From Microbotryum violaceum (lineage: Eukaryota), in the NCBI GenBank assembly GCA_001244265.2, contig CDLV01000010.1:1-64000 (forward strand): a stretch of DNA of 64,000 nt. Reading direction: 5' to 3'. Below are positions 26,655 to 32,155 of the stretch, piece after piece. Every line of letters starts with the position of its first letter. The stretch's first letter is position 1. The translations under genes and the position numbers were made by a program. A model generated the notes under the pieces. It searched no databases and was not told the origin of the DNA. It worked only from the letters and a program-made list of their open reading frames with translations.

Positions 26655-27453
26655 AAGGGGAAGGTGGCCTGCTTGCCGATCCAACATCCAAAAACAAAGA
26701 TTGCCACTGGGCAAAAGAAAGGAAGAGAGGTGCGCAGCCTTCCACTGCGCAACAAGTTTCGAGACAGTCAGCTTCCAAAATGAAAGTCGACCTTGGAAAA
26801 GGAAGAAAGAGAGAGAGAAAAGAGGGAAGGAAGGAAGGAAAGACTTAACTCGGTCATCACACCTCCCAATCTCGAGCCCCAGGAACAAAACCCGCTCGAG
26901 AGAGAAAATCTCGCTCGAACGCTCTGAGTGCACTGGGGAGCGAGGGAGGGCCACGACCTTGTCCAGCTCGAACCGCTGGTGGACGTGCCAGCGCAGCAAG
27001 TGCAACCGCTGGAACCCAATCGCACAAGCCAACCGAACCCACATCCACTTCGAAGTCGTTCTCCCACGACCCCGCAAAAGGGGGAGCCCCATAGTCAGCT
27101 GCTCCTGGGTGAACGTCGACGGATCGACGTCGGTATCCTCGATGCCGAGCTTGTCGAACAGGATGCGCAGCACCCCGCTCCAGTAGCTGGCCGAGTACGC
27201 GCACCCGAAGAAGTAGTGCGACACCGTCTCGATGACCGCTGCATCGTTGCCACAGAACAGACACGATGGCGAAGAAGCATGGCCCTGGACATGTTGCTTC
27301 TTGCGCGTCGGTGTCACATCGTACATAAGCCGCCAGTGGGTGTCCTGCTCCGCAGCAGACGCGAACCGGTCATGAAGCCAACTCCAGAAGCGCTGCCTCC
27401 CGCTCTGAGAAGTCCCCTCGGGGAAACGCTTGACCCGAGGCTCCTGAGGTTGC
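26655..27453 (-). mobile_element. L1/Tx1-like non-LTR retrotransposon family 1 fragment (zf-RVT end plus part of 3' UTR)
   Basis: FWSWLH...WRLMYDVTPT...CLFCGNDAAVIETVSHYFFGC zinc-binding motif; homologous to 30430-31210. Confidence 0.85.
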
Positions 27454-29662
27454 TTTTTTTTTTTTTGTAGAACTTGTTCATCATATTGCCCCCAATTCCT
27501 GTTCCCCTGATTGGCTTACGGAAAAACTAGATGGAAGTCGACGATGATAACACAAACCGCCCGCAAGATGCGAGAAACGGGCCGGTCTCCACCAATCCGA
27601 TACTTGGGATTCAAGTGCCCCAGCCAAGCGGTTGCTCCCCCCAGGAGACGAATGAGAGAGAGAAGGAGAGAGAAAGAGAAAGAGAAAGGAGTAATAAAAC
27701 AATTTACTAAGCGACAAGAGGCCCACCCTGCCGTCACTTCCCAACTCGGTCGAGACAAAGACAGGAGATCGACTGCGCAACTACCCTGACCCGCGAAGTC
27801 CTAAGTCTATGCGCGGTCACAACAAGACGCGGTGGAGGCCCCTCAAAACCTCCACCTCAGCAGTCCCTGGCCCCTCAAAGCCGACTTTCTGCCTGTGTCT
27901 GCTGATCCCTCCCTTGACTCAGAACCCCGAAGCCAAAGAGCGCGAGTCACCGTCGAGTCAATCTCAAATCGCGAGCCGGTCCATGAGCAACGAAGGCAGA
28001 CCTGTAATAGATGAAAGATGAAAGCAAGATATTTAGTATACAGTGTTTTGTTGGAAGATGAAGCGTGATGGTGTGTGTGTGTGGGGTGTGGTGGGGGGAA
28101 ATCGAACCCAGCCTCTACTGCCCTCGCCCGCCCCTTGCTCCTCCCGCCCTCAACTTCATCCTCTCCTCCAGTACCACCCTCCTCCTCTCCACGCTTTCCA
28201 TCCTCGTCCCGTGCTTCTGCATCCTCCATCTCCCACTGCTGATCATCTCCAAAACCCCCGTGAAGATCTCGATCGTCCAGCCCGCCCCTTCCTGTTCGCT
28301 GAGCTTGGCCTTGAGCTTGGGGAGGCCAAAGAGCCGTTGCAGTGTCGTGTACTGAGCGTCCTCGATCGTGTCGCACCCGAGTGCGTCGCAGAGCACGCCC
28401 TTTGCCGCGATCCAGACGTTCCGCGAGTCAACGCAGCCGAAAAAGTAGTGGTCGGTGTCGTCCACCGGCGCTTCGCAGACGAGGCACGCGGGAGAAGTGT
28501 CGTGATTCTGTTGGTGTTGCAGCTTGCGCGTCGGGGTGAAGCGGAGAATCAGCTTGAACCAAACTTCCCTCTCCCTCGCCGTCAGTGCCTTCGAGTTGAC
28601 CGCCTTCCAAAAGCTCCTGAGGTCGTCCGGCTGCGGTGGTCCCTTGAGCCCGAGCGTGTTGGTAAAGGCCTTCGCGTTCAGGACCCGGCGGATGCGACGG
28701 ATGGTGTACGGTCGAGCCATGTTCAGCAGCTTGTACTGGCTCGCCTGCTGTGGAAGAACCGGGTCCGGAAGGCGCTGCTCCATTGCGAAGCGGGCCACGG
28801 GCTTGGGGAGAATCGCCTCGAGCGGTGCGCTGGTGCAGATCCGGGGAGGCACGTTGAGCCGTCCTGCCGCCACCGCCACCGCCACCGCTAAGGGCGTGTT
28901 CTTGTGTCGATCGACAGTGAACCGGTACCAGGCCGCGATTGCCAGTCGCTGCGGGAGCCCGCGTCGATCGTACTCGCTGTTGTCGCCGAGCACATCCGCC
29001 GGCGGCGTCCAAAGGTGAAACCCCCCACCCGCATACAACTCGCGCCGGTAGAGATCCGCCACCTTCGGGTAGCCCTGGAGACGAAGGTAGTCAGGTATAT
29101 GAACCGCGTCGATGGTCTGTCTCCCTCTGATGGGGGTGTGGAGGCTGCCGAGCAAGGTGGGAAGCGCGAGCAGGTTCGCGGTGGTCAAGGTCCTCGGGTT
29201 GACCTGCGCGTCTTGCTGTTTCGGAACCCCCAATGCTGCTCGCCATCGGGAATGGAGGTCGCTGGGGATGGGAGTGGATGGATGTGGCCAGAGATCGGTG
29301 GCCAGGTCGAGGTCGGACTGAGCTCGCTGGAGTGCCGCGCGCGCAAGTCCTTGCCAGATCGCGCCCGAACCGCCGAGAAGAACGTCCCAGATCCGTGCCG
29401 CAACCGCGTCCACGACGTCCTGCATCCTGATCACCCGAGTCCACCCTTGAGCTTGGCTGTGAACACGATATCTCTGCCGTAGCTGGTCCTGCCCTTGCCC
29501 CACGGACGAAATCGACGAGCATGTCATCGAGCTTCTTGACGACTTCGGGCGGCGGGATGTCGGCTGCAAGGAAGTGCAGGATCTTGGGGATGGCGTACCG
29601 ATTGACGTAAAAGGCACGGGTGTGGTGTGTGAGCCAGCGATGCTGAAACCCTTCCAGCGTCG
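27454..29662 (-). mobile_element. L1/Tx1-like non-LTR retrotransposon family 2, 5'-truncated, with poly(A) tail
   Basis: T13 at 27454-27466, ~650-bp 3' UTR, and ORF2 C-terminus ending at 28115 (YVNRYAIPKILH...; FWKAVN...WFKLILRFTPT...CLVCEAPVDDTDHYFFGC). Confidence 0.88.
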
Positions 29663-31215
29663 TTTTTTTTTTTTGACTGGGGCTCATAAATTGCAATCCT
29701 TCGGGTTGGCTGGGACCGCTACAAAAAGAGCTAAAGGAGGTTATAAAGCAACGACGGCAAGCAGTTGGGTGAAAGTCAAACCCCTGCGCGCAAAGAGCGC
29801 TGCGCAGATCAAAACCCGCCGAGCACCTAACGCGGACTCCAACGGGCGGTGAGTACTGCTGCCGCTTCACGTCCCAAGAGCGGGAGCAAAGATACTCGAA
29901 AACCAGGCAAGAGCGCCTAGAGAAAGAAGGGGGAGAGTATACAGAAAGTCACAACTGGGGATACGGAGAACCAGGAATACTAAGACAGAGAGGAGGGGAA
30001 CACACCCGAGGGGCCAAGGGAGGGGTCGAAGCCGGAGGTAGAGGTCTCCAGGGACTAACAGGCCGCAGCCAAGCCCCAGCTACTCGTCACCCCGACAGCG
30101 CTTGATGTCCTCCCTTGGCTAAATCTCGAGTGCTGGCTGTTGAGCCGTCGGGGCCGAGAGAAGAGCGATCCAGTACAACGAAACGAGCCTCGCCTTGACG
30201 TGAGGATATTGACCAGAAACGAGCGACCTTCCTTCCCGAGCCATGCCGTAGATCTTGACCAACGCGAACGAACGAACCATTCAACGGAATCCAACACACG
30301 GCTTAGGAGTAAAAGGAGAAGTGGCTGAAGCGTAGTCAACAACCGAGCAACAGGAACGAGAAGAGGAAGGGAAGGGAAAAAGGGGGGAAAGGAGAGGGAA
30401 AAACTTCACAAAGCCTCCAACGCAAAGACAATCGACCTGGCTTGCCGATCCATCCAAGAACAAAAAACCGCTACTGCGCAAAGTAGAGAGAGAGAGAGAG
30501 GTGCGCAGCCTTCCACTGCGCAACAAGTTCCAAGACAGTCAGCTCACAAAAGAGGAGTCGACCTCCGAAAAAGAAGGGAGGAAAGGAGGGGAGGAAAATG
30601 GGAAGGAAGGACTTAACTCGGTCATCACACCTCCCAATCTCGAACCCCAGGCACAAAACCCGCTCGAGAGAGAAAATCTCGCTCGAACGCTCTGAGTGCA
30701 CTGGGGAGCGAGGGAGGGGCCACGACCTTGTCCAGCTCGAACCGCTGATGAACGCGCCAGCGGAGCAGGTGCAGCCGCTGGAAGCCGATCGCGCAGGCCA
30801 GCCGAACCCACATCCATCTCGAGGTCGTTCTCCCACGACCCCGCAAAAGGGGGAGCCCCATAGTCAGCTGCTCCGGAGTGAACGTCGACGGATCGACGTC
30901 GGTATCCTCGATGCCCAGCTTGTCGAACAGAATGCGAAGCACCCCACCCCAGAAGCTGGTCGAGTACGCGCACTCGAAGAAGTAGTGCGACACCGTCTCG
31001 ATGACCGCTGCATCGTTGCCGCAGAACAGACACGTCGGCGAAGAGGCATGACCCTGAGTATGCTGCCTCTTGCGCGTCGGCGTCACGTCGTACATGAGCC
31101 GCCAGTGGGTGTCCTGCTCCACAGCAGACGCAAACCGGTCATGAAGCCATCTCCAGAAGCGCTTCCTATCGCTCTGAGAAGTCCCATCACGGAAACGCTT
31201 GACACGATCCTCTCG
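29663..31215 (-). mobile_element. L1/Tx1-like family 1, 5'-truncated, with complete ~950-bp 3' UTR and poly(A) tail
   Basis: T12 at 29663-29674, 3' end ...ATGAGCCCCAGTC(A)n, zf-RVT ORF end with stop at 30625. Confidence 0.88.
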
Positions 31216-31418
31216 TTTTTTTTTTTTTTTTTGACTGGGGCTCATAAATTGCAATCCTTCGGGTTGGCTGGGACCGCTACAAAAAGAGCTAAAGGAGGTT
31301 ATAAAGAAACGACGGCAAGCAGTTGGGTGAAAGTCAAACCCCTGCGCGCAAAGAGCGCTGCGCAGATCAAAACCCGCCGAGCACCTAACGCGGACTCCAA
31401 CGGGCGGTGAGCTCTCGC
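31216..31418 (-). mobile_element. Family 1 3'-terminal stub (~180 bp plus tail)
   Basis: T17, then sequence nearly identical to 29675-29853. Confidence 0.9.
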
Positions 31419-31970: not shown

Positions 31971-32015
31971 TTTTTTTTTTTTGTAGCCTTTTTTTTTTGT
32001 AGCCGTTTTTTTTTT
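31971..32015 (-). mobile_element. Two family 2 micro-stubs (T12-GTAGCC, T10-GTAGCCG) and terminal T10 (putative target tract)
   Basis: GTAG right after each T tract equals the last 4 nt of family 2. Confidence 0.6.
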
Positions 32016-32064
32016 GAAATGTTGATTTTATAAAGGCAAAACAAAGATCACCCTAAGCTTCTGT

Positions 32065-32146
32065 GCTTTCGTGGTGTAGTGGTTATCACATATGCTTTAC
32101 ACTCATTGGACGCATCAGGTCCCCGGTTCGAACCCGGGCGAAAGCA
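32065..32146 (+). tRNA. tRNA-Val(TAC) with ~9-nt canonical intron
   Basis: Acceptor stem GCTTTCG/CGAAAGC, A box TGGTGTAGTGG, anticodon TAC at 32098-32100, intron ~32102-32110, T arm CCCGG-TTCGAAC-CCGGG. Upstream TTTATAAA at ~32027. Confidence 0.92.
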
Positions 32147-32155
32147 TTTTTTTTT
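32147..32155 (+). terminator. Pol III oligo(T) terminator
   Basis: T9 directly after the discriminator base. Confidence 0.85.

Follow-up and report, generated by a model that had tools for sequence, protein, structure and literature searches.

A stack of truncated LINE copies upstream of a tRNA-Val gene

The window analysed here is a 64,000-nucleotide stretch of Microbotryum violaceum DNA (contig CDLV01000010.1, positions 1 to 64,000), and its subject is a stack of LINE (long interspersed nuclear element) copies that occupies positions 26646-32015 and ends close before a tRNA gene. Five clear 5'-truncated copies, belonging to two L1-like families designated A and B, lie head-to-tail on the minus strand; a 22-bp stub and a T-rich 17-nt repeat (2.6 copies) complete the stack. 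An earlier reading of this DNA, made from the letters alone (the sequence-only reading), had already described the copies as minus-strand, 5'-truncated and head-to-tail, and self-BLAST and alignment bore this out. Its count of about eight LINE segments stood for the five clear copies; the stub is weak, and the two pieces within 31971-32015 are not assignable to a LINE, because the sequence there shares only GTAG with the family-A 3' end.

The leftmost copy, B3 (26646-27453), is a family-B fragment that is both 5'-truncated and 3'-deleted and lacks the poly(A) and ~770 nt of the 3' untranslated region (UTR). A1 (27454-29662) belongs to family A and comprises a T13 tail, a 3' UTR portion of ~650 nt and the final ~515 codons of open reading frame 2 (ORF2), with a frame that is broken near 29500. 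B1 (29663-31215), of family B, carries a T12 tail, a 3' UTR portion of ~950 nt and the final 196 ORF2 codons. B2 (31216-31418) is a T17 tail followed by 186 nt of the family-B 3' end, and A2 (31441-31970), which holds 3' UTR only, is a T12 tail followed by ~512 nt of the family-A 3' UTR. The 5' truncation points therefore lie either in ORF2, 196 and ~515 codons from its stop codon, or in the 3' UTR. Self-BLAST placed A2 at 85.7% identity to A1 (27452-27983) and B3 at 87.4% identity to B1 (30440-31233). Between B2 and A2 lies the minus-strand stub (31419-31440), made up of T12, GTAGAAC (a 7-nt match to the family-A 3' end) and GCC; it is too short for statistics and is possibly an abortive insertion. 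The strandless T-rich repeat (31971-32015) reads T12GTAGCC, T10GTAGCCG and T10, with a period of ~17 nt (unit T10GTAGCCG), 2.6 copies and 96% matches as called at 31973-32016 by Tandem Repeats Finder (TRF). TRF also reported purine-rich, microsatellite-like GA/GAA stretches in the 3' UTRs of both families (27645-27691, 30485-30608 and 31642-31685).

The stack is distinguished from the rest of the window by its T runs. The window has a G+C content of 55.0%, and only 11 A or T homopolymers of at least 9 nt occur in its 64 kb; eight of these are T10-T17 runs inside the stack, starting at 27454, 29663, 31216, 31419, 31441, 31971, 31989 and 32006. The other three (A9 at 1067, A11 at 44968 and T9 at 32147) are all that ~58 kb outside the stack contain. 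Every copy with an intact 3' end opens with T12-T17 and every 5' end is followed by T10-T17, such that a poly(A)/T boundary is present on both sides of the elements at 7/7 internal junctions and again at the terminal T10. This T10 (32006-32015) forms the edge of the stack and is the tail of no element. The T10-17 tails that had been claimed for all copies other than the leftmost are thus present, B3 alone being without poly(A). The stack also accounts for all LINE sequence detected, as had been stated from inspection: none of 347 tblastn high-scoring segment pairs with LINE proteins lay outside 26600-32020.

To the right of the stack, ARAGORN predicted an intron-containing tRNA-Val(TAC) gene on the plus strand at 32064-32147, and Rfam matched its tRNA model at 32065-32146 with 54.1 bits (gathering score 29). 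This gene is the only Rfam match in the 64 kb and the only ARAGORN tRNA. A plus-strand T9 (32147-32155), the first T of which is the last tRNA base according to ARAGORN, is a putative RNA polymerase III (Pol III) terminator. Between stack and gene lie 48 nt of unique sequence (32016-32063, plus strand), within which TTTTATAAAGG at 32026-32036 (-38 to -28 relative to the tRNA) is TATA-like and may serve as a TATA box. The sequence-only reading was correct that the stack stops shortly before an intact tRNA-Val(TAC) gene with element 5' ends toward it; the gap that it gave as 49 bp is 48 nt when counted from the last T of the stack (32015). The LINEs occupy the minus strand and the tRNA gene, to their right, the plus strand, so that at this one locus the element 5' ends point toward the tRNA 5' end.

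Both A1 and B1 encode the C-terminal zf-RVT domain of LINE ORF2, and across this region the two families are ~30-35% identical. All 58 protein homologues retrieved are LINE gene models of Microbotryum silenes-dioicae, M. saponariae or M. intermedium. A1 shares 93% amino acid identity with P0004, a full-length relative in which Exo_endo_phos, RVT_1 and zf-RVT are all present; the copies in the window retain zf-RVT only. Another relative, P0016, has human L1 ORF2p as its best solved-structure match (E = 1.4e-22), and the match spans the endonuclease and reverse transcriptase regions. These full-length relatives, with an apurinic/apyrimidinic endonuclease (APE), a reverse transcriptase and zf-RVT, together with the structure match, support the classification of A and B as putative L1-like LINEs. 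The term "L1-like" used in the sequence-only reading is therefore upheld. The stack also shows other traits typical of APE-type LINEs, namely poly(A) tails, 5' truncation at varying points and target-site duplications. A putative L1-clade placement draws on the structure match and on a statement in PMC3956500. L1-clade LINEs of Microbotryum have already been described, and both families are ordinary LINEs of this genus. For M. lychnidis-dioicae, 392 LINE copies and 134 tRNAs were counted (PMC4469406). The available portions of the published accounts of Microbotryum LINEs are silent on where the elements insert, on T runs as targets, on arrays and on tRNA genes.

Repeated integration at the locus and junctions in other organisms

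Target-primed reverse transcription (TPRT) is expected to leave, on the plus strand, a few nucleotides and a T run, then the tail and body of the element up to its 5' end, and then the same few nucleotides and T run once more. This arrangement was found at two copies. B2 is preceded by CTCTCG + T17, which is the 5' end of B1 and part of the B1 ORF, and is followed by CTCTCG(C) + T12; A2 has AACGCC + T12 on either side. The duplications are at least 18 nt long, and for B2 and A2 alike the left copy is the 5' end of the adjoining fragment. Duplications of the form "few nucleotides + T run" indicate that B2 and A2 are separate insertions into T runs. The larger family-B copies also have different origins: B1 is 98% identical in amino acid sequence to the C-terminal end of P0057, and B3 is 96.5% identical to P0041 and P0054, a type with its own 13-residue insert just upstream that separates its subfamily from the P0057 type. 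Because B1 and B3 match different subfamilies, they are not copies of one another.

Junctions at the same site were sought in Logan contigs of four sequencing runs, compared with positions 25800-32800 at an identity of at least 90%. The contigs are short and none spans the array, so that its overall order is unconfirmed by any single contig, and the joints described below are not provably all from this locus. Parts of the array that lack long contigs carry no information, and contig depths serve as a rough guide to single- versus multi-copy sequence. On this guide the array regions are multi-copy in 4/4 runs; in X17, for instance, flank depth was 15-37 and array depth was 105-1642. X17 matched the right flank (31976-32800) with zero differences. 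Loose ends of contigs show that longer family-A copies run on past the position equivalent to 29662. The contigs tended to end within the GA/GAA stretches.

In X12 (organism D), a contig with a single-copy depth of 26.5 runs through family-A sequence to the equivalent of 28025, continues for 15 filler nucleotides and joins T|GAAATG at 32015, where a single T precedes GAAATG. The T-rich repeat, absent from this junction, is present in organism C (X3), in which two branches join a common flank contig (depth 67) that begins at the 31971 T run: the first, of depth 26.4, holds an A copy that stops at the position corresponding to 31869, and the second, of depth 41.1, holds a B copy that stops at the position corresponding to 30401 and is followed by 9 filler nucleotides. 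Organism C also carries the A1 5' end (29661) joined to a T run and an A 3' end at depth 55. The joints in both organisms place truncated A or B copies next to a T run and an A or B 3' end, and, within the reach of these short contigs, at least three different LINE junctions lie at -49 to -93 of the tRNA across organisms. The edge of the stack and the organism D junction both fall at -49/-50. These distinct joints in C, D and the window indicate that different lineages carry different LINE junctions within -49 to -93. Empty alleles in other strains had been proposed as a check; no empty allele of the site was recovered in any of the four runs.

Taken together, the duplications at B2 and A2, the subfamily difference between B1 and B3 and the differing junctions in other organisms support repeated independent integration, in agreement with the repeated use of one site that the sequence-only reading had proposed. 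The locus is a real, recurrent LINE integration hot spot.

T runs and the tRNA gene as candidate targets

The reading that we favour, and to which we give about even credence, is that two L1-like Microbotryum families integrate by TPRT directed to T runs, with the tRNA gene as a bystander. The element endonuclease would nick at the 3' end of a plus-strand T run, the resulting T flap would base-pair with the LINE RNA's poly(A) tail, thereby priming cDNA synthesis, and the second strand would be cut a few nucleotides past the opposite end of the run, leaving "few nucleotides + T run" on both flanks of the insertion. Each insertion would thereby convert one T run into two, namely the element's own tail and the duplicated target, and the array would seed itself head-to-tail in one orientation. 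The tRNA gene would be a neighbour and not a recognised target, and at most it would provide an accessible upstream region. Because T runs are scarce in this 55% G+C window, LINE tails and duplicated targets make up a large share of the available targets; because each insertion yields two T runs and natural ones are few, self-seeding arrays of uniform orientation are the expected product.

The positions of the two insertions that can be traced favour this reading: the T run that A2 entered (31971-82) ended 81 nt from the tRNA at the time of insertion, and the B2 target lay at least 103 nt away, neither of them at -49. Junctions in which one LINE follows the tail of another in other Microbotryum gene models also appear to favour it. 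Eight of the 58 public models hold two LINE ORF2 C-termini in one orientation, and seven of these eight were compared with the window; in P0012, an A 3' end is followed by a short K run and then by what is apparently a much longer family-B copy than B1. The window's own junctions were matched by 0/58 protein models, and no orthologous array was found among them. In a metagenome collection, a protein-profile scan yielded 210 pattern matches of which none was confirmed, and an exact scan with the family-B 3' end yielded 0; as Microbotryum is absent from that collection, these negatives have no biological meaning.

A close parallel is Zorro3, an L1-clade element of Candida albicans that targets poly(A) tracts of 9-12 bp, has poly(A) at both element ends and has inserted independently at the same sites, without association with tRNA genes (Goodwin et al., PMC1965478, in the portion available). 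The stack resembles it in being L1-like, in its poly(A)/T bounds at both ends, in presumed target tracts of ~9-12 nt, in 5' truncation and in repeated insertion at the same site (PMC1965478, PMC3956500, each in its available part). There are also differences: the available Zorro3 text reports no large target duplications, whereas B2 and A2 have duplications of 6 nt plus the T run; it reports no tRNA association, whereas the hot spot here lies upstream of a tRNA gene; and head-to-tail arrays are not mentioned in that portion of the text. The comparison is one of anatomy and not of sequence, and judged in this way the stack would seem to match poly(A)-tract targeting of the Zorro3 type at least as well as it matches TRE5.

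Several observations weigh against T runs as the sole guide. The stack edge at -49/-50, with 5' ends facing the tRNA, has the position and orientation of a TRE5 insertion. A chance founding event in a 15-bp window is estimated to be uncommon, on a rough calculation from 392 LINEs, 134 tRNAs and a genome size that we take to be ~26 Mb. Organism D has a different A copy that abuts exactly T|GAAATG. The A11 at 44968 and the T9 of the tRNA carry no LINE, although these are two sites only. The apparently lineage-specific insertions in the window and organism C all lie between A1 and the T-rich repeat, and the older tails (27454 and 29663) showed no such insertion; this clustering suggests that tRNA-proximal T runs are favoured over distal ones. 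Finally, no empty allele was recovered, and the T run at the site before the first insertion is presumed, not observed.

The main alternative is Pol III-directed targeting of the TRE5 kind, in which the LINE ribonucleoprotein would recognise TFIIIB/TFIIIC on the tRNA gene and insert a short distance upstream in fixed orientation, with T runs acting as local nick and priming sites. We regard this as possible but less likely than not. It would account for the 48-nt spacing between edge and tRNA and for element 5' ends turned to the gene, as in TRE5-A, for the presence of at least three different junctions at -49 to -93 in different organisms and for the lack of insertions seen in distal array tails; the TATA-like box at -38 to -28, presumptively a TFIIIB site, adjoins the edge. 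However, the evidence comes from a single locus that was chosen for its tRNA, the entry points of A2 (at least 81 nt) and B2 (at least 103 nt) lie outside the narrow TRE5 window, and stacking and orientation are explained by T-run anatomy alone. In addition, the related, poly(A)-targeting Zorro3 has no tRNA association in the available text (PMC1965478), reviews list tRNA-targeting non-LTR (long terminal repeat) elements for dictyostelids only (PMC5911963, PMC5006619), and the LINE-next-to-LINE models of other Microbotryum genomes are not placeable relative to tRNAs.

In TRE5-A of Dictyostelium discoideum, insertion takes place 46-49 bp upstream of tRNA genes, and the element turns its 5' end toward the tRNA (PMC3159450); the range given for TRE5 is 40-54 bp upstream (PMC5911963). 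The edge at -49/-50 and the element 5' ends facing the tRNA 5' end agree with these values, and frequent 5' truncation and repeated use of the same tRNA gene are likewise shared (PMC3159450, PMC5911963). What defines TRE5, however, is that its copies keep strictly to tRNA genes across the genome and that ORF1 binds TFIIIB, whereas here there is one locus in a window without ORF1; moreover, two dated insertions lie at least 81 bp upstream, and the host is a basidiomycete fungus. The likeness considered here is one of position and orientation.

It is possible, although less likely than not, that A and B use Pol III-bound tRNA genes as landing pads, entering ~50-95 bp upstream in fixed orientation through T-run-primed reverse transcription. 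If so, they would extend tRNA gene targeting by non-LTR retrotransposons beyond the dictyostelids for the first time and represent an independent, convergent TRE5 strategy in fungi; a literature search returned no description of tRNA-associated LINEs in basidiomycetes. A real link to the tRNA would mean that homing to Pol III genes in fungi is a property of LINEs as well as of LTR elements, as LINEs do in amoebae, and it would provide a second independent system for studying how an element that works by endonuclease and TPRT reads a transcription complex. If integration is instead directed by T runs, the locus still shows cleanly, in a natural setting, how the targeting of poly(A) tracts makes self-seeding LINE arrays in a G+C-rich genome.

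Local rearrangement, the left border and chimeric gene models

Whether the stack could be mainly the product of local rearrangement, with few insertions multiplied by tandem duplication, slippage or 3' transduction and hence fewer independent integrations, was also considered. The 5' truncations of B3 and B1 are only ~6-7 nt apart and each is followed by a T run and an A 3' end; the B part of P0025, from another species, begins at the same residues behind an A-like copy; the 17-nt tandem repeat found by TRF sits at the stack edge; and B2 matches the B1 3' end (29663-29853) at 99.5% identity in self-BLAST. Rearrangement as the main account is nevertheless very improbable, because B1 (P0057 type) and B3 (P0041/P0054 type) come from different source subfamilies, B2 and A2 have target-site duplications of their own, and A1 (2.2 kb) and A2 (0.53 kb) are incompatible with one duplicated unit. 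Two specific forms of it were weighed. A segmental duplication of the B|A junction, prompted by the near-equal B3 and B1 truncations, was rejected as the main account on the subfamily difference. The other was 3' transduction of a unit composed of A, poly(A) and B; it retains some probability for B1 and A2, but the AACGCC + T12 duplication argues that A2 arrived on its own. The near-coincidence of the B3 (27453) and B1 (31215) truncations may reflect an effect of microhomology or a hot spot for truncation.

At its left border, the array interrupts a gene. The leftmost copy had been placed from 26655 onward; its start is corrected to 26646, and unique contigs stop at 26645 in 4/4 runs. Immediately to the left, tblastn of P0059 and P0060 identified a truncated copy of a superfamily 2 (SF2) helicase gene on the minus strand (25108-26645), corresponding to approximately residues 288-726 of a 726-residue Microbotryum protein. 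The fragment is 94-96% identical to P0059 and gives a weak Helicase_C match, and the N-terminal DEAD/ResIII part of the helicase is absent from the window. The helicase fragment shares its strand with the LINEs and borders on B3, which is deleted at its 3' end; this suggests a deletion that removed parts of both. Within the fragment, positions 26121-26194 form a canonical 74-nt intron (GTGAGT...CAG on the minus strand, with an in-frame TGA). The possibility that the fragment is a processed retrocopy was rejected: it has no T run at its 3' end and retains the 74-nt intron, features that make deletion the more likely origin. In 4/4 runs the intron is skipped by a contig of approximately single-copy depth, and the flanking helicase contigs have ~2x the depth of the right flank; there thus seems to be a second, intron-less copy of the helicase region in these genomes, possibly a retrocopy.

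The arrangement of the stack also bears on public annotation. P0001, P0002, P0003, P0011, P0012, P0023, P0025 and P0041 (1,390-2,207 residues) are chimeric models that string LINE fragments together in one orientation, and P0013, P0015, P0026, P0027 and P0036 are chimeric models that carry Copia-type integrase and reverse transcriptase domains as well. Such chimeric Microbotryum "proteins" are annotation artefacts of transposable element arrays, and the array reading explains public "proteins" of ~1,400-2,200 residues as strings of LINE fragments.

Four positions in the left flank, 25861, 25972, 26335 and 26511, have a common alternative letter in 4/4 runs (T in place of the window's C at three of them, C in place of its T at one). 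As these differences are shared even by the run that is identical to the window in the right flank, the window's strain differs from all four runs in the left flank.

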